Part shown: positions 10,729 through 20,918 of the stretch, in pieces
How positions within the stretch are numbered: position 1 is the first letter of the stretch
Layout of the letters: every line of letters begins with the position of its first letter
Assembly (NCBI GenBank): GCA_000004695.1
Contig: CM000153.2
Location: forward strand, 352,001 to 416,000
Length of the DNA: 64,000 bases
Direction of reading: 5' to 3'
From: Dictyostelium discoideum
Lineage: Eukaryota
Notes under the pieces: model-generated
The model's database searches: none
Seen by the model: only the letters and a program-made list of their open reading frames with translations
What the model was told of the DNA's origin: nothing
Made by a program: the position numbers and the translations under genes

Positions 10729-12548
10729 ATGAGAAGATCACAATTTACAACATTAACACAATCAAATCAAGATGTTTCAAATACTACCAATATATCACCA
10801 CCACAACCACCACATCAAATAATCAATAAAACAAATTATTGTTTATTAATTAAAGATAATAGTAATAATGAACAAAATGATAAATCATTTACATTAAAGA
10901 CTGTTCAATCAAATTGTTCAGAGTCTTTAGAATTTAATATAAAATCATTCATTTATCAAAAAATAACAAAAAATATGATTTATAAATCTGGTTCTTTTGG
11001 TATTTTAGAAAATAATAATAACAATAATAATAATACTCAAAATCAACCAATTAATAATAGTAATAATGATAATAATAATAATAATAATGATAATAGTGAA
11101 AAGAAATTTACGTTATCATGTTTTTATACAATGATTGAAGTACCAATAATACATAATAATACAAATGATGTTAGTAATAATAATAGTAATAGTAAATCAA
11201 CTCCATCTAGTCCAATGAAATTATCAGTATCAGATTTATTAGAAGATGAAGAATTAATATCAAAAAATAATAATTTTCAAGATGATTTAGAAAATTTAAA
11301 TAGTTTAGTAGATTTCTCTATAAATGATGATTTAGATGATATTGTAAATGATATAGATGGTGATGTTTCTTCACCTTCAAATAAAAATACAACATCAACT
11401 AATCTTACAAAAACAGAGAATGATGTAAATTTAAAAAAGAAACAGCTTGAAAACTCATTAAAGGAATATTATTTATGTTTAGTATGTGAAACAGAGAATG
11501 ATGTAAATTTAGGTTTATTCCATTTAGAAATATCTGAATTTTGTTCATCATTAACAATATTAATTAGTGAAATTATTAATAGTAACAATTGTAATAATAA
11601 TGGTAATAATATCACTGATAGTAATAATAATAATATTAGTATATATAGTGATTTATCAATTCAAAATAAATTATCAAATTGGTATTCAAAATGTATAGAT
11701 TATATAAGTAGAGCAGTTAAATTGTTAGATATAAATATTCAATATATAATTTATTCAACACTTACTGGAAACACTTTTAAAATTATAACTTCACCATTGT
11801 CATCATCACCACAAACATTGGCAACAATGAAAACAATATCAGATGATATAATTAGCTTTTTAAAAACTATTAGTATTGTAAATTTATCAACAAAAGAACT
11901 ATCACCAAATCAATTCATAATTAAACCAGATGAAAGTAATAACTCTGTAATATTTGATAATAGTAGTAGTAGTAATAATAATAATAATACAATTGCAAAC
12001 ACAACAAATTATGATTCAATAGATGATACTACCACTGATAATAATAATAATAACAATAATAATAATAATAATGATAATCTATTTATAATCGAAATAAAAG
12101 AATCTGAAGAAAGTAATGATAAATTTAATATTGTTTTAAATAAACATGGTAAGTTTTATTATTTATTATTTATTATTTATTAAGCTGTTTATTAATTTTT
12201 ATTTTTATTATTATTTATTAATTTAAATTATTAGATGATAATTTATTTTGTAAGAAATGGTCAAATAAATATATTGAAAATATAAATAATTCAATTTCAC
12301 TTAGAAATTTATCAGAGGATTTAAAATTGAAGGTTATTCAAGAATTCAATATGTTTAGAAGAATGATTGATATTTCAACTTTAAATAATTATTTATTATA
12401 TAAATCTTTTCTATTTCTAAGTTGTAATGATAATAGTGATATTCTTTTATACCTTTTAAAAAAAGATAACATTCAAGATATCAAAGAGGTTTTAATAGTT
12501 TTAGAGAATCAATTAAAACAACACCAACTTAAAATAAATAATAATTAA
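10729..12548 (+). CDS. Hypothetical Asn/Ser-rich protein. Exons are 10729..12148 and 12235..12548.
   Basis: Long ORF with several poly-N tracts. The donor CATG|GTAAGT at 12149 and acceptor ATTAG|ATG at 12234 keep the downstream ORF (KVIQEFNMFRRMID...) in phase. Confidence 0.55.
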
Positions 12549-12836
12549 ATAAATAAAAAAAAAAAAAAATTAGAAATAAAAAAAAAAAAGTTTAAATTTT
12601 ATAAAAAAAAAAAAGTAATAAAGGTTTTAAAATTATAGAACATAGTTTATTAAAAAATATTTATAATTTTTTCATTTATCAGTTTGGTTTAATTGGACGA
12701 GGGTTTTTTTATTTTTTTTATTTTTTTATTTTTTTTTTTTGTCAAAGATTGAAACTTCATTTTTTAAAATGATATCGTATATTGAATTATTTTTAGAAAT
12801 AGGAAAACATTAAATATTTGTATTTGAATTTTAAAA

Positions 12837-13001
12837 TCACATGACCAACAAATTGCCAATACCCCCTTGATTACCGAGTGGATTATATATTTGAATTTTT
12901 GATTTATTATCAAAATTAATTTGAAGAGATTTGGAATTTTTATTATAATTATTTAATGATGATGATTTATTTAAAATATTAGTTAAAGAATTGAAAATCA
13001 T
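12837..13001 (-). CDS. Small ORF family member (55 aa): MIFNSLTNILNKSSS...NPLGNQGGIGNLLVM
   Basis: Paralogous to the 14668..14883 ORF. Both copies have a (TTTTA)n-containing upstream region, and the conserved 3' motif encodes NPLGNQGG. Confidence 0.4.
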   Translation of the reverse strand: MIFNSLTNILNKSSSLNNYNKNSKSLQINFDNKSKIQIYNPLGNQGGIGNLLVM

Positions 13002-13045
13002 TTTTTTATTTATATTATAATCAATATTTAAAATTTAAAATTTTT

Positions 13046-13105
13046 TTATATTTTATTTTATTTTATTTTATTTTATTTTATTTTATTTTATTTTATTTTA
13101 TTTTG
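13046..13105. repeat. (TTTTA)n of about 11 units upstream of the small-ORF family member. A second copy lies at 14960..15000.
   Basis: Direct reading. The element is duplicated together with its downstream gene. Confidence 0.85.
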
Positions 13106-14609
13106 AATAATGAAATAAAAATAAAATTTTTGATTAAATACTTTTATTTTTTTAAAACAAAAACAATGATAAAACAATTAAAATTTAATTTTCTTATCAG
13201 GGTTGCAAATTAAAAAAATAGTTAAAAATGAAAAGAGGTTTGAAATGATCTAATTATAGTTTTGTTATTTTTAAATCCAGAAAAATGAAGATAGAGTGAA
13301 TAAAATCAAATCGAATCCAATCCAATCCAATTGTTTTTTTTTTTAGAAACAATCATTGTACAAAAACAATCAATTTTTTACACATTATTCAATTTGATTT
13401 AACCCCATATTATTTTTTAAATTGATTTTATTTATCTATGAGTTTTATCGAACAACCCCCACAAAAAAAAATTAAAAAAAAATAAAATAAAAAAAAAAAA
13501 ATTAAATAATTAAATAAATTAATAAATGATGAAACGGTTATTTTTATGTGGTGGACTACCATTAAAAAGATGAATGATTATAGTTTTTATAATTTAAAAC
13601 TTTTTTTACACATAATAATATTACTTTTCATATTGTTGTTATTTTCAGTTTATAGTTTTTTTAAACTCCATCTTATCGATTAAATAAGATTAATAAAGAT
13701 TAGATAATCTAATTATAAAAAACTTAATTCCATAATGGCCATTAGTTCCTTAATAATATGCAAACGCCTGGGAATAATAAATCTATTTTTAAGATTAAAA
13801 TTGAAAATTAATTAAATAATAAATTAACAGCTCTCATCAAAGAAATAAATAAACTCTATATTACGGTACTATCTCAAAAAAAAAATTAAATTCTTAATTT
13901 TTAAATTTTTAAAATTTAAGAATATAAAGTTTATTTTTAAACCCATATGGTTGTGTGGAATTAAAATTTGCTGTCATACCACCTTGGTTACCAAGTGGAT
14001 TTTTATTTTAAAAAAGGGTAAAGTAAAAGGGGGTGTTAGATTTTTTTTTTTTAATAAAATCAAAATCAATTTTTTACACATTGTTCATTTAATTAAAATA
14101 ATTTAATAAAATTATTAAATTTTAAAATTATAACCCCATATTATATTTTAATTGATTTTATTTATCTATGAGTTTTATTGAACAACCCCAACCACAAAAA
14201 AAAAAAAAAAAATTAAATTATTAAATAAATATTAAATAATGATGAGATCATCTCACTGTAAAAAATTGGTTTCCTTAATAAAATACATTATCGGCAATTT
14301 TAAATACATTTTAAGATTATTATCTTTTATCGAATAAAATTAACAAATTATTAAAAATAAACAAAAGTTCGTGTTTTCAATAATTTAGTAAAATAATTAA
14401 AAACTATAAAATAATATAATAAAATAAAATAAAATAAGTTAAATTAAAATTAAAAGAATATTCTTTAATAGTTTAAAATAAAAATATATTCTTTTAAAGG
14501 TTTATTTTTTTTGTTTTTCGATATTTGTTGATAATTTTTTATAAACCAACTATGTATTATTTATTCGATTCGGAAAGTTTTATTTTTTGCAATTTATTGG
14601 AACTTTTTT

Positions 14610-14640
<31 letters not shown>

Positions 14641-14667
14641 TCTTATTTGGTTTAAAACAATGATTAA

Positions 14668-14883
14668 TTAATATTTGTCGATACCACCTTGGTTACCAAG
14701 TGGATTATTTTTAATACTTGTACCACTTTGGTTACCAAGTAGACTTTTTAAAATACTAACACCTTGAATATTTAATTTTTCAAAATTAATAACAATTGAT
14801 TTTGAATTGATATCAAAGTTTTTATTTAGGGCTGATGATGACGAGGAGTTATTTAAAAATTTAGTTAATGAAGTGAAAATCAT
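14668..14883 (-). CDS. Small ORF family member (71 aa): MIFTSLTKFLNNSSSSS...NPLGNQGGIDKY
   Basis: Appears in the ORF track. Its N-terminus (MIF.SLT..LN.SSS) and C-terminal NPLGNQGG match the 12837..13001 copy, and the upstream (TTTTA)n is also duplicated. Confidence 0.45.
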   Translation of the reverse strand: MIFTSLTKFLNNSSSSSALNKNFDINSKSIVINFEKLNIQGVSILKSLLGNQSGTSIKNNPLGNQGGIDKY

Positions 14884-15545
14884 TTTAAAATTTTATTTTA
14901 ATTTATTTATTTTATTATCTTATAAAATTAAATTATATTTTTATATCAAATTATTATTATTTTAAATTTTATTTTATTTTATTTTATTTTATTTTATTTG
15001 TATTGAATAATGAATATTTATGAAAAATCATTTTTTTTTATTAAATACTTTTTTAAAAAAAAAAAAAATAAAAAAAAAAAGTATAATAAAATAATAAATA
15101 AATAATAAATGTTATAAATAGAAATCTATTTTATTTGTGACTTAACAAGTCGATGCTTGTGAATGTATTAATAAAAAAACGAGAAATAAGTTAATCCTAA
15201 CATTATGTTGATGATATAAATAGATCGAAATGATGGAGAGAATAATATCAAAAATAATTTTTAAACTGAAAATTAACAATATAATGATAGTTTTAATTCA
15301 GTACAATTATTCACTTTTACACAAATATTTCAATTTTAATTTTGACGAATCCACAAATTACATGCAAACAAATATTTCACCCCTTTTTTATTTTAAATTA
15401 TTTGTTTTTATTTTAAATTATTTTTTTATTTTTTTTTTATTTTTTTTTTTTTAGTGGTTGAACAAATAAATTTAAGGTTTCAAATTAAAACAATTATTTA
15501 AAAAAATAAATAAAAAAAACCTAATTCAATGATTAATAATTATTG

Positions 15546-15580
<35 letters not shown>

Positions 15581-16210
15581 ATAATTCTATATTAAAAATA
15601 AAATTTCAAGTAAATTATATTTTTTTCTTTAAAATAATCTTAAATTCCTACTTTCTTTGTATCAAAATTAAATTTTTTTTTTTTTTTTTTTTTAAGGTTA
15701 TTTTAAATTTAAATTCCTACTTCTTTGAAAGTAATATTAATTTTTAAATTGAAATTAAAACACTTTGGTAAAACTAATTATAAAATGAACAATTATATTT
15801 ATATATCATTTTTAAATATTTAATTTTTATAGGAATTAATTTGTTCAACAAACATTAATTTTTGTATTGTGGAATAATTTAAATAATTTGGGTGTAAAAA
15901 TGATTGTTATTTTTTTACACACAATAAAATTGGTACTATCATTATATTATGATTGTTATTTTTCCGTTGGGAATTCCTCATCGATCTGATTTAATCATAA
16001 ATTAGATAATCCAAATTAATAAAAACAAAAATAAAAACAAATAAAAAAAATAAATTTAAAAATTAATTCAATTAAAAAATGATTTTCAATACTTAAACTT
16101 AAATTTTATTTTTTATTTTTTTATTTATTTTTTATTTAATTTACAAATTTATAATAACTTTTCCAAATAAATCATTTTTTTCAATAAATTTATAAGCATC
16201 AATAATTGAA

Positions 16211-18290: not shown

Positions 18291-20918
18291 TTAAATATTT
18301 GAAATGAATAATGAAATTATTATAATGATTAAAATTGATAATAATAGATTTTGAAAGATATTTCTAGCATCAGAGTATTGATGAACATCATCAGATTGAG
18401 TTAAATATTTGAATACTTTTGATATACCACTTTTACCATTGGTTGAAACATTGATAAATATCATTTCACCATTTTTAATATTATTAAATGTATAATTAGT
18501 TGCTTGAATAAAACATGTTATCATTGTATCATTAATATACTTTGCTTCATTACAATTTAAACTACTATTACCACTACCATTACCATTACCAATTATTGTA
18601 ACTTTATCAATTGGATAATAGAAATCATTTCCAATAATTGTTAAAATACCTCCTTGTTTTAAATTAATTATACTAGTTTGATTAATTGATGGTGATTTAT
18701 ATATAAAACTAAATGTTGATACTATATTATTATCATTATTAAATAATAATTTACAAGTTTTACCATTTGGACCATTTAATTTAATGTAGCATTCTAATGA
18801 TGTACTGCTATTATTTAATTTACATTCTTTTTCTATAATTTGTTCACCATTACATTCAATTGTAAAATTTGTATTATTATTTAAATATTTACCAATAATA
18901 ATGATATTACCACCATTTGTATCAAACAAGTTAGGAATCGATACATTTTTAAAAATTGGAAATGTATTAATATTTACTTTATTTGATAATAAACCACATA
19001 CATTTAAATACAATTCACCAAGAATATTATACTCATCATTCATTTGAAATGATATTGATTCATAAATACTATTATTAATTTCTTTACTAAGGGCTATTGA
19101 TTGACCTGAAATAAAAATACTTGTTTCATTATATTTATTTACAAAACCTTTACCAATACAAGTAACAATTTCATTTGAATTTAAATTACATTTATTAATC
19201 AATGGTGATTCATATGAAAATGATGATTGATATATTTGATTACCAATTTCAATTTCATAATTTATAATACCACAATTATTTTCAATTAAAAATGAACATG
19301 ATACAACACTTTCATTTACATTGGTTGAAATTGATTTACTTGTTTGATTTGATTTTTCATTAATTATTTTAATTGTTGGTATTAAATTAATATTACTTGA
19401 ATTTACATAAAATAATGTAAAATTAATTAATTTATTACTAACCAATGGAATTTCATTTATTCTTGCATACATTTCTACATCTACATTGATTCCATTTGAT
19501 TTGATTGAATTTGATTCAATTGAAATGTTGAAATTATAAATTTGATTTTGTATTTTTAATATTAAATCTGTTTCATCATTATTAATTGATTTTATTTGGC
19601 CAAAAACTTGTTTATCATTGATATGAATTTGAGTTGAATTAATATTACCAAAACAACCACCAATTATATGAATTTCATCATTAACTTGAGAGAATGTTGT
19701 AATATACGGAGTATCATAAATTAATAATAATGTATTTGTATTTACGACATCATTAATCGATACAGCAATTGGTGATGAATTATTAAATGTTGAATTTGAT
19801 AATGGTTGTAAATTACATTTAATTTCATTTGAAGATGACGAAACAATTGAACAAATAGAATCACCAACTGTTACTGATATATTATTATTATTTGATGATG
19901 ATGGTGATGAAGTTAATCTATTACCATTAATTATTAATAAACCACCTTTTAATTTTGGAATACTATTTACAATTGATGGAATTGGTGGATATGTAATTTG
20001 AAATTGAGATGACCAATAATCACAACAACCGACTTGAACATTAAATTTTGATGAGAATGGATCTGAATAATTAAATTTTAATTTAATAATTTCAAAATCA
20101 ACTGAAATAATATCATTTGGGTCAATAATGTTATTATCAATTTTAACAGAAACAAAAATTGATTGATTATAGAAATTTGTACCAGTTATATCAAGAAATG
20201 ATTGATTAATATCAATTTTTTCAATGTTTGGCTCTTGATATGTAAAATTCAATGTTTCATGATTCTCCCAAATAATTGTTCTGTATCCACAACCTGGATA
20301 GACTTTTAAAATTAAATTTATTCTATCAGGTGTTTTTGATTGAAACACACCAGGAATTAAATATACATAGCCAGAATAAAAAAACTGATCTTTTCTATAG
20401 GAATTTTCAAATTGAACATATATTCTTTCTTTTAACTCTAAATAATAACCGCTTAATGTTGTATTTCCACCTCTTGTTTTTGGTTTAAACTCTGAAATTA
20501 ATAATGGACTTGGGAAATAAAATAAAGGAAGATCATAACCACACATTTTAAAAGTACCATTATTTTCTGTACATGCAGATATTTCCTCTGAATACATTTG
20601 AGCATGATCAGATTCTTTCACTGGTAAAGTACAAGTTCTAATTGTATTATTTAAAACACAATTAAAACTCATATCATAACGACTTTTACCTTTCCATAAA
20701 AATGAAATATTTGTATAATAATTTTCTATTTCACGATATCTAATCACAAGAGAATCATTGTGACTTTCATAACCTAAAAAAATAATTAATAAATTATTAA
20801 TATATTAAAAAAAGGGACAAGAAAAAAAAAAAAACAATTTACCCAAAGGAATTACTTCGTCATAAGAAATGGAAAATGAAAATAAATAAAAAAGTATAAA
20901 AAATAATAATATTTTCAT
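18291..20918 (-). CDS. Signal-peptide type-I membrane glycoprotein with about 5 IPT/TIG-like repeats and a C-terminal TM; Tgr (tiger)-like family candidate. Exons are 20843..20918 and 18291..20773.
   Basis: Exon 1 MKILLFFILFYLFSFSISYDEVIPL (signal peptide) has donor G|GTAAAT, and the acceptor TTTTTTAG|GT joins in phase to ...GYESHNDSLVIRYREIE. The repeated motif P.I.S..P..GG..I.I.G..L/F is typical of IPT/TIG domains. There are many NxS/T sites and a terminal hydrophobic helix LLLSILIIIIISLFISNI. Confidence 0.55.

Follow-up and report, generated by a model that had tools for sequence, protein, structure and literature searches.

Is a short, almost palindromic sequence that recurs within a cluster of very small open reading frames (ORFs) kept for what it encodes or for what it is as DNA? 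The question is raised by a stretch of chromosome 4 of Dictyostelium discoideum AX4, 64,000 nucleotides (nt) long and called the window here, in which the G+C content (GC) is about 20% and the ORFs are rich in poly-Asn. An earlier note on the window had drawn attention to two minus-strand ORFs with a common peptide pattern, to a 24-nt core occurring four times, to a (TTTTA)n tract upstream of each ORF, and to a second duplicated sequence interleaved with them (block 2 below); it had left the choice between a protein motif and a DNA-level element undecided. We find that the interval from 12.8 to 16.1 kilobases (kb) very probably holds four copies of one small gene unit, two intact, one internally deleted and one decayed, belonging to a lineage-restricted family of tiny proteins, and that the core represents the codons of a motif of these proteins. 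The copies would have arisen by tandem and inter-chromosomal segmental duplication with the promoter carried along, which would account for the upstream block, the GAATAATGAA box and block 2 being common to the copies; later steps would have been expansion of a microsatellite, an internal deletion of about 410 nt that left a relic, and an in-frame internal duplication of 39 nt in one gene.

Two small genes and their family

The two ORFs are present exactly as the earlier note had described them, the common peptide pattern included, and both are genes already annotated in AX4, identified by exact protein match and situated on a contig of 5,450,249 bp:

12837..13001, minus strand: gene A1, DDB_G0283209 (XP_639200 / Q54RE5), hypothetical protein of 54 amino acids
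14668..14883, minus strand: gene A2, DDB_G0283179 (XP_639201 / Q54RE4), hypothetical protein of 71 amino acids

The A1 protein reads MIFNSLTNILNK...NPLGNQGGIGNLLVM, with its core codons at 12861-12884; A2 contains the segments SIVINFEK, NFDINSK, LNIQGVSILK and SLLGNQSGTSIK. These genes were compared with a chromosome 3-type locus of another D. discoideum assembly (L001), with Logan contigs of related isolates (L002-L005), and with the syntenic chromosome 4 loci of a second D. discoideum assembly (L006), of D. citrinum (L007) and of D. firmibasis (L008). Unfiltered self-BLAST of the window was swamped by AT-rich low-complexity matches, and was replaced by GC-weighted alignments with shuffle controls.

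Sequence and profile searches recover seven annotated family members in AX4: a cluster of four on chromosome 1 (DDB_G0268672, DDB_G0268676, DDB_G0268688 and DDB_G0268690, with the C-terminal end ...NPLGPQGGVGPYF), one on chromosome 3 (DDB_G0278467) and the two on chromosome 4, whose membership is firm (hmmsearch with the family profile, E=1.7e-26 for the 71-residue and E=8.6e-19 for the 54-residue ORF). Unannotated copies are found in the chromosome 3-type locus of the other D. discoideum assembly, at the syntenic site in D. citrinum and in Logan contigs, while the syntenic interval of D. firmibasis contains no family member. A hidden Markov model (HMM) search of 1.84 billion cluster representatives returned, beyond the family, just low-complexity noise in unrelated repeat proteins; a Pfam-A scan at E<=10 gave a sub-threshold KTSC match for one window ORF and nothing for the other; and none of the seven family gene IDs was found in the searchable literature full texts. 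As judged from these searches, the family appears so far to be restricted to D. discoideum and its closest relatives, with no detectable homologue elsewhere.

The family ORFs are intron-less and 53-71 codons long, and the proteins are rich in Ser, Asn and Lys. Their N-terminus MIFTSLTKILNK follows the pattern MIF[TN][ST]L[TI]K/N[IF][LS]N[KN] and then a Ser run, also in both window ORFs; in an alignment of 10 sequences M1, I2, F3, S5, L6, L10 and N11 are invariant (MIF.SL..(I/F)LN). A middle box reads (I)NSKS(I/L).INF(E/D) (INSKSI.INFEK). The C-terminal motif NPLG[N/P][Q/K]GG[I/V] is present in both window ORFs and in the relic at 13978, and in the 10 annotated and Logan members N60, P61, L62, G63, G66 and G67 do not vary. 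GG is without exception followed by I or V, and then by a freely variable tail of 0-6 residues. D. citrinum copy 1 carries SPLGNQGGI, and the diverged copies cit2 and chr3c have lost the motif.

Two side observations concern the C-terminus. The post-GG tail of A1, IGNLLVM (12837-12860), can be set against 13957-13977 on the minus strand (ATTGGCAATTTGTTGG and ATGACAGCAAATTTTAAT, respectively, at the DNA level), and looks like a frameshifted version of the chromosome 3-type tail (ISRAFN; MTANFN in the relic), which fits a tail that is unconstrained after GG. Furthermore, L001 4834-5019 (minus strand) is a diverged member that keeps the N-terminal half (MIFNTLIKISNKSSSPSLSSNTRFGINSKSVEINFGNN) and, where other members have the NPLG motif, carries a hydrophobic tail (LKMIASWSMFSFVTIFGLMFIYF); it could be a frameshifted pseudogene or else a variant anchored in the membrane, and it was not recovered by either family protein search.

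Constraint at the protein level is evident in how the coding sequences differ. By the Nei-Gojobori method (NG86), the ratio of nonsynonymous to synonymous rates (dN/dS) lies between 0.12 and 0.57 in all 15 pairs, and pooling four phylogenetically independent contrasts gives a ratio of the corresponding proportions (pN/pS) of 0.38 (one-sided Fisher p = 3.4e-8). All unambiguous coding-sequence indels are multiples of three (9, 12, 3, 33, 3, 39, 6, 15, 3, 12 and 9 nt), while those in the flanks are of any length. At flank-like composition about 10% of random codons are stops, and a 54-codon frame stays open by chance with a probability of 0.003; when neutral change is simulated up to the divergence observed, the probabilities that the four contrasts remain open are 0.24, 0.45, 0.18 and 0.02, a product of about 4e-4. 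We thus read the window ORFs as real protein-coding genes under moderate purifying selection.

Several observations weigh against this reading. Nucleotide identity of the coding sequences (80-89%) is no higher than that of the 5' flanks (81-87%), so that the case for selection rests on the kind of substitution and indel and not on overall conservation; the duplications are recent, and the signal is therefore in the kind of change and not in its amount. The second D. discoideum assembly matches the window at 99.84% identity over 3.66 kb with two gaps and zero substitutions, and thus carries no within-species polymorphism information. In the data of Rosengarten et al. 2015 (PMC4403905 supplement 3), no replicate has a read for the chromosome 1 paralogues at 0-6 h; cAMP-pulsed development gives 1-6 raw reads at 8-12 h, and late filter development gives scattered reads. 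In Kin et al. 2018 (PMC6198379), their values are close to zero in all of spores, stalk, cup and vegetative cells. The paralogues are, as far as these sources extend, nearly silent in every data set, and expression of the window genes is extrapolated from them. None of the four family gene IDs and two UniProt accessions searched appears in the available supplementary text of a life-cycle proteome paper, nor any of the six family gene IDs searched in a bacterial-response data set.

The strongest rival is that the ORFs are spurious, either duplicated non-coding DNA that happens to be open or dying pseudogenes without function. Apart from the near silence of the paralogues and the absence of the searched IDs from those parts of the proteome supplements, it can point to the lack of a Pfam family and of literature, to the annotations of other assemblies, in which the two window ORFs are not called, to the two dead units among the four in the window, and to flank identity being about that of the coding sequence. 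It is nonetheless difficult to reconcile with the pooled pN/pS (0.38, p = 3e-8) and with indels that are in frame in the coding sequence only. The ORFs are moreover open across species at 10-37% divergence, when some 10% of random codons would be stops, and the start codon, N-terminal dodecapeptide and C-terminal motif are kept over three chromosomes and at least three species. We consider spurious ORFs unlikely.

The 24-nt core

Read as the last conserved part of a small protein, the core encodes the C-terminal motif NPLG[N/P][Q/K]GG[I/V]. Four copies are found in the 64 kb, where shuffles lead one to expect none:

12861-12884, minus strand: core copy in A1, three mismatches
13978-14001, minus strand: core copy in the relic, exact
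14683-14706, minus strand: terminal core copy in A2, exact
14722-14745, minus strand: internal core copy in A2, three mismatches

The number given by the earlier note therefore stands, while its start coordinates were 1-6 nt off and the 12861 copy is not identical to the others, having three mismatches. The inverted repeat CTTGG-N3-CCAAG that it had described holds for the two exact copies and fails in the other two window cores. Its statement that the core is better conserved than its flanks is borne out between A1 and A2 (21/24 in the core vs 72% over the whole coding sequence), except that the 5' end of the coding sequence is about equally conserved.

The substitutions in the core are those expected of codons under constraint. 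A1 and A2 differ at three positions of the core (CTC, AAT and GGG), all three synonymous, which jointly abolish the inverted repeat. Across the terminal cores five of six independent changes are synonymous; the chromosome 3 cores have a Q->K change (CAA->AAA), which likewise breaks the palindrome, and L002 and L003 bring two more synonymous changes. The earlier note had suggested looking at whether synonymous positions are conserved more than expected; the core varies mostly at synonymous sites, and over the coding sequence synonymous change is in excess of nonsynonymous change. Together with the retention of the motif in all members that end in it, and with purifying selection on the ORFs, this favors the protein-motif reading, and the near-palindrome would follow from the codon usage for L-G-N-Q-G (CTT GGT AAC CAA GG). 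We conclude that the core is conserved because of the encoded peptide, and that the locus is an ordinary gene-duplication cluster rather than a DNA-level signal.

The alternative left by the earlier note, in which the core is a DNA-level element (a binding site, a replication or recombination hotspot, or a terminator-like hairpin) and the ORFs are incidental, draws on three observations. The sequence CTTGGTTACCAAG forms a perfect 5+3+5 inverted repeat in two copies and is called hairpin-like by a generic scan; the 13978 core persists without an intact ORF; and the core lies inside the 39-nt tandem duplication of A2, where it might have favored slippage. Among the eight terminal cores that were sequenced and encode the full motif, however, just two have a perfect dyad, the other six being broken by synonymous or peptide-conservative changes, and the chromosome 1 paralogues encode NPLGPQGG, which is incompatible with the palindrome. 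Dyad symmetry is thus not conserved independently of coding, as a palindromic DNA-binding or recombination element would demand. In addition, the core is always in frame, at equal distance from the stop codon and in equal orientation relative to the ORF, and it has zero occurrences outside the family reading frame in all DNA examined (the 64-kb window and the homologous loci). We therefore hold a DNA-level element to be very improbable. A bacterial-style promoter and terminator scan was set aside as irrelevant in a eukaryote; the "terminators" that it called are the core palindrome.

A scan of the JGI metagenomes found no match to the 5' coding-sequence pattern and a single match to the core pattern, which is a chance occurrence in an unrelated bacterial ORF and so lends the DNA-level alternative nothing. 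The match (L009 969-992, plus strand; contig Ga0099364_10037928, about 38% GC) lies in a bacterial ORF of 110 amino acids (…GGHGNPLGNKGGVNLTGCMKIKF…) and encodes NPLGNKGG; by its sequence this ORF may resemble a RelE/ParE-type toxin, and it is unrelated to the family.

Two of the four core copies belong to events that altered a unit after duplication. The 13978 copy is part of a relic:

13909..14007, minus strand: relic of a third copy, with the core at 13978-14001 and a read-through tail (NPLGNQGGMTANFN...), a TAA at 14008-14010, from sequence reading and tblastn

As the earlier note had observed, this copy has no start codon: ATG is absent, and the in-frame TAA lies three codons upstream of the core. 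In tblastn the relic matches the chromosome 3-type C-terminus NPLGNKGGISRTFN with 64% identity over 14 amino acids, and its tail MTANFN resembles the chromosome 3-type tail ISR(T/A)FN; the second D. discoideum assembly has the relic as well. Splicing of the orphan core to an upstream exon was considered and rejected, there being no AG acceptor between block 2 and the core. From the upstream block 2 copy to the relic core there are 54 nt, vs about 460 nt in the intact A1 unit. This unit 2 of the cluster is therefore an internally deleted relic, from which about 410 nt are gone: the whole proximal promoter and two thirds of the coding sequence, counted from its start. Only block 2 and the core remain as a consequence, and hence the two looked interleaved. 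The persistence of the orphan core is thereby accounted for as a leftover of a full unit.

A2 contains an in-frame tandem duplication of 39 nt (14682-14720 / 14721-14759), absent in the chromosome 3 and D. citrinum copies, which gave rise to the diverged core at 14722-14745 (SLLGNQSG). The three substitutions of this internal core are all nonsynonymous (N->S, P->L and G->S), the opposite of what is seen in the terminal cores, which points to constraint on the motif in its C-terminal place alone.

Upstream sequences of the duplicated unit

A complete unit measures about 0.9-1.1 kb and comprises a distal 5' flank, a TATA-like box, a T-rich stretch, an AT-rich leader with (TAAAA)n, and the intron-less ORF. 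The upstream parts of the window units are the following:

13002..13143, minus strand: A1 proximal promoter and putative 5' leader, with AAGTATTTAAT at 13133-13143, the T-rich stretch, TTCATTATTC at 13105-13114 and (TAAAA)10 at 13051-13100
14884..15050, minus strand: A2 proximal promoter and leader, with AAGTATTTAAT at 15040-15050, TTCATTATTC at 15005-15014 and (TAAAA)6 at 14967-14996
15302..15467, minus strand: A2 far-upstream module, TTGTTCAACCAC...GGGGTGAA...TGTGTAAAAGTGAA, found by nhmmer with a model of the chromosome 3 and D. citrinum units (E=1e-18)
13347..13510, minus strand: block 2 copy 1 (B1), distal 5' flank of A1, about 350-510 nt upstream of the ATG, collinear with L003 1-165
14055..14240, minus strand: block 2 copy 2 (B2), distal 5' flank surviving in the unit with the internal deletion, separated by 54 nt from the relic core downstream
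15885..16096, plus strand: a fourth, decayed unit, with a module at 15885-16010 and a truncated start ATGATTTTCAATACTTAA (MIFNT and a stop) at 16079-16096, from an HMM scan and alignments

That the promoter travelled with the coding sequence is seen best in the A2 unit, since two tandem L001 units match window 14711-15622 at 78-80% identity over 840-960 nt, about 600 nt upstream of the ATG included; L001 has a third, diverged member on the opposite strand. The fourth unit, which was absent from the earlier note, aligns to the chromosome 3 minus-strand unit and to D. citrinum copy 2, and its far-upstream module is closely similar to that of the chromosome 3 minus-strand copy. It stands head-to-head with A2, a layout equal to that of the D. 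citrinum copies and of the minus/plus pair in L001.

The TATA-like box AAGTATTTAAT lies 142-173 nt upstream of the ATG. It is invariant in five aligned units, and D. citrinum copy 2 has it as a sixth; the remaining D. citrinum copy carries a canonical TATA, AAGTATATAAT, at this place. In the early promoter work of Kimmel and Firtel on Dictyostelium, the layout recognized is reportedly a TATA box and, after it, a stretch of oligo(dT) that immediately precedes the start of transcription. Given this classical layout, we infer that AAGTATTTAAT is a putative TATA box and that transcription starts near TTTCATT, which would place the microsatellite in the 5' leader; on this model the start would lie some 25-35 nt downstream of AAGTATTTAAT, near TTTCATTATTC.

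The box TTCATTATTC is the reverse complement of GAATAATGAA, which the earlier note had correctly seen at the end of both (TTTTA)n blocks, at 13105 and 15005; one more copy occurs in the window at 18306. Between the T-rich stretch and (TAAAA)n stands TTTCATTATTCAA, the reverse complement of the GAATAATGAA box; no other 30 nt of the flank are as well conserved between the A1 unit and L003. As for the repeat itself, 9-11 units had been reported upstream of both ORFs; this is right for A1, with 10 units at 13051-13100, and not for A2, which has 6 units at 14967-14996. These are the two perfect (TTTTA)n runs of at least 4 units in the window, each upstream of one ORF, and at the homologous position the chromosome 3, L003 and D. 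citrinum units have about 2-3 units or a degenerate (TAAAA)n. The tract is thus a length-variable microsatellite, expanded locally within a co-duplicated promoter or leader, and no conserved element of fixed length.

Two further sequence features recur in the units. Most units contain, some 125-150 nt ahead of the real ATG, a start-like ATGATTTTTCAT or ATGATTTTTTAT, which resembles the start of the coding sequence, ATGATTTTCA (window 15020-15031, minus strand; L001 3994-4005 and 5850-5861; L003 363-372; L007 12470-12481, minus strand). The site lies between the TATA-like box and the TTCATTATTC box and opens a frame of 15-18 codons, for example MIFHKYSLFNTNKIK followed by a stop; the A1 unit is without such an upstream ATG. 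It could be an upstream ORF or the relic of a partial 5' duplication, and may or may not be transcribed. The second feature, a near-palindromic AACCATATGG(G)TT(T), is found at L001 4405-4425 and 6262-6285, at L002 266-290 and at window 13940-13965 (minus strand), that is, about 110 nt past the stop codon in chromosome 3 units and directly after the relic tail; its position suggests that it may be a 3'-end element of the unit.

Block 2 had been described as a second, unrelated duplication. The duplication is confirmed (13400-13510 vs 14131-14240, 87% identity over 111 nt, local alignment z=12.3 against shuffles), and the 26-nt centre of the block has exactly two occurrences in the window, but unrelated it is not. 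The contig L003 carries the orthologue of the A1 unit in a related species, the end of its neighbouring gene being about 55% identical to DDB_G0283177, and is collinear with window 13520-12990 over about 500 nt, block 2 included at an equal distance from the ATG. Block 2 is therefore part of the duplicated gene unit, B1 being the distal 5' flank of A1. We rejected the idea that it is a specially constrained enhancer, as it is no better conserved between the A1 unit and L003 (73-90% per 30-nt bin) than the remaining flank (69-100%). Homology of block 2 to the far-upstream module of the A2, chromosome 3 and D. citrinum units, for which collinear anchors can be seen by eye, remained unproven with the model built from non-window units (nhmmer E=5 and E=75; pairwise z 1.6-3.8). 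A box C/D small nucleolar RNA promoter on the plus strand was likewise dismissed: box D (CTGA) is missing, conservation does not extend past ATGATGA, and Rfam gives no match. The sequence AATGATGA follows both block 2 copies.

There is also a small resemblance of block 2 to the promoters of Class I-type small non-coding RNAs, and it could in principle be a DUSE plus TGTG-box promoter that was co-duplicated with the genes. In such promoters the TGTG box lies about 60 nt downstream of the DUSE, which in Group 4 species has three consecutive C (PMC7919456). On the gene strand block 2 contains the DUSE-like octamer ACTCATAG (ACCCATAG in L003) with, in one copy, a TGTG-like heptamer containing AATGTG 57 nt downstream, and a long T-run precedes the block. 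The three consecutive C are, however, missing from both D. discoideum copies, the spacing from the DUSE-like to the TGTG-like box is unconserved (57, 72 and about 97 nt in three copies), no RNA gene or structure follows, and folding is no better than in shuffles (z -1.4 to 0). The consensus [AT]CCCA[CT]AA has no exact match in 12-16 kb, and the window matches it less often than shuffles do; Rfam returns nothing at gathering thresholds for the whole window or at E<=10 for 12.4-15.6 kb; and, as noted, conservation against the orthologue does not exceed that of the rest of the flank. We regard a non-coding RNA promoter as a very doubtful explanation of block 2.

That the repeats, block 2 above all, are pieces of a mobile element or known dispersed repeat with element-borne small ORFs would agree with copies on three chromosomes, with local clusters that include truncated copies and with head-to-head pairs, but is extremely improbable: terminal inverted repeats, target-site duplications and ORFs for transposase or reverse transcriptase were not seen, there is no tRNA gene nearby (Dictyostelium TRE elements usually target tRNA genes), neither block 2 nor the core is found at any other place in the 64 kb, copy number is low, and the position of the unit beside a gene of the Njmu-R1 family, syntenic in D. 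citrinum and the L003 species, indicates vertical inheritance. The earlier note's proviso that the core might belong to a dispersed repeat or transposon finds no support in the DNA examined either, the family being confined to the cluster sites in the 64 kb.

Neighbourhood, possible function and meaning

The gene next to A1, DDB_G0283177 (Njmu-R1 family, PF15053), lies at 10729-12548 on the plus strand and has one intron at 12149-12234 (GTAAGT...TTAG). Spliced as 10729-12148 plus 12235-12548 it encodes 577 amino acids in exact agreement with the database, which confirms both the locus and the intron; orthologues are present in D. citrinum, D. firmibasis and more distant dictyostelids. On the other side, L006 17555-21820 (about 18.3-22.5 kb of the window by offset) contains Ig_TgrO1 and TIG domain genes beyond a zinc-type alcohol dehydrogenase-like gene, so that the small-ORF cluster adjoins genes of the tgr type, a kin-recognition family. 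A scan of the window found no tRNA genes. In the chromosome 3-type locus a perfect (TATTG)n microsatellite of about 22 units is located at L001 3120-3230, just downstream of the alanyl-tRNA synthetase gene.

An AF2 model on the family alignment has a pLDDT of 57 and a pTM of 0.19, with a helix at residues 3-11 alone and the rest unstructured. Inspected by eye, the N-terminal dodecapeptide looks amphipathic (I2, F3, L6, I9 and L10 share one face), and the polar and charged interruptions of MIFTSLTKILNK are unlike a classical signal peptide; the "secreted or regulatory" character proposed in the earlier note is unsupported either way. We infer that the proteins are small, largely disordered peptides, that their conserved termini would serve as short linear binding or processing motifs, and that expression is very low and post-aggregative.

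Several known systems resemble the family in part. The HssA/2C/7E and SigN groups are likewise tiny intron-less ORFs of low complexity, rich in Ser, Asn or Gly, with an N-terminus M-x-[IL]-F-x-S-[IL]-[ST], and are likewise arranged in local tandem arrays on several chromosomes, dictyostelid-restricted and developmentally regulated. They differ in that no sequence relation was detected (Pfam at E<=10, profile search), and NPLGxxGG[IV] and the INSKSI.INFEK box are specific to the window family; the Pfam model of HssA/2C/7E matches neither window ORF in the Pfam-A scan. With orphan microprotein or small-ORF families there is agreement in the length of less than 100 codons, the narrow clade, promoter-carrying duplication, the coexistence of intact and decayed copies, moderate constraint (pN/pS about 0.4) and very low expression, though these are a category and not a family, and carry no information on biochemical function.

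Ubiquitin-like and Pup modifiers are alike in form only, with an invariant GG after a conserved motif and then, here, a variable tail of 1-7 residues (I/V counted); trimming of ubiquitin-like precursors exposes their GG. The predicted disordered body is like that of prokaryotic Pup, an intrinsically disordered protein, whereas ubiquitin-like proteins differ from the family in that no beta-grasp is predicted (in a low-confidence model) and no sequence similarity is found. The invariance of GG and of the residues before it, the I or V after GG, and a tail free in length and sequence would be compatible with disordered pro-peptides cut after GG (NPLGxxGG / I/V-tail), whereby GG is exposed for conjugation or a post-aggregative signalling peptide is released. 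This is a long shot; if true, and if the exposed GG is conjugated, the family would be a modifier specific to this lineage, resembling Pup or ubiquitin in nothing but its logic.

The finding is thus real but ordinary: genes that were already annotated, in a promoter-carrying segmental duplication with decay. The near-palindrome that had raised the question is a codon-level by-product of a peptide motif rather than a DNA element for regulation or recombination. The family may be of slight biological importance, since its paralogues are almost silent. What is gained is that seven scattered hypothetical proteins are joined into one family with defined motifs and promoter architecture, together with unannotated and decayed copies, and that D. 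discoideum offers a small but clean case in which a young family of microproteins has grown through segmental duplications that carry the promoter along, at a genomic GC of about 20%, where frames as long as these are very unlikely to be open by chance.

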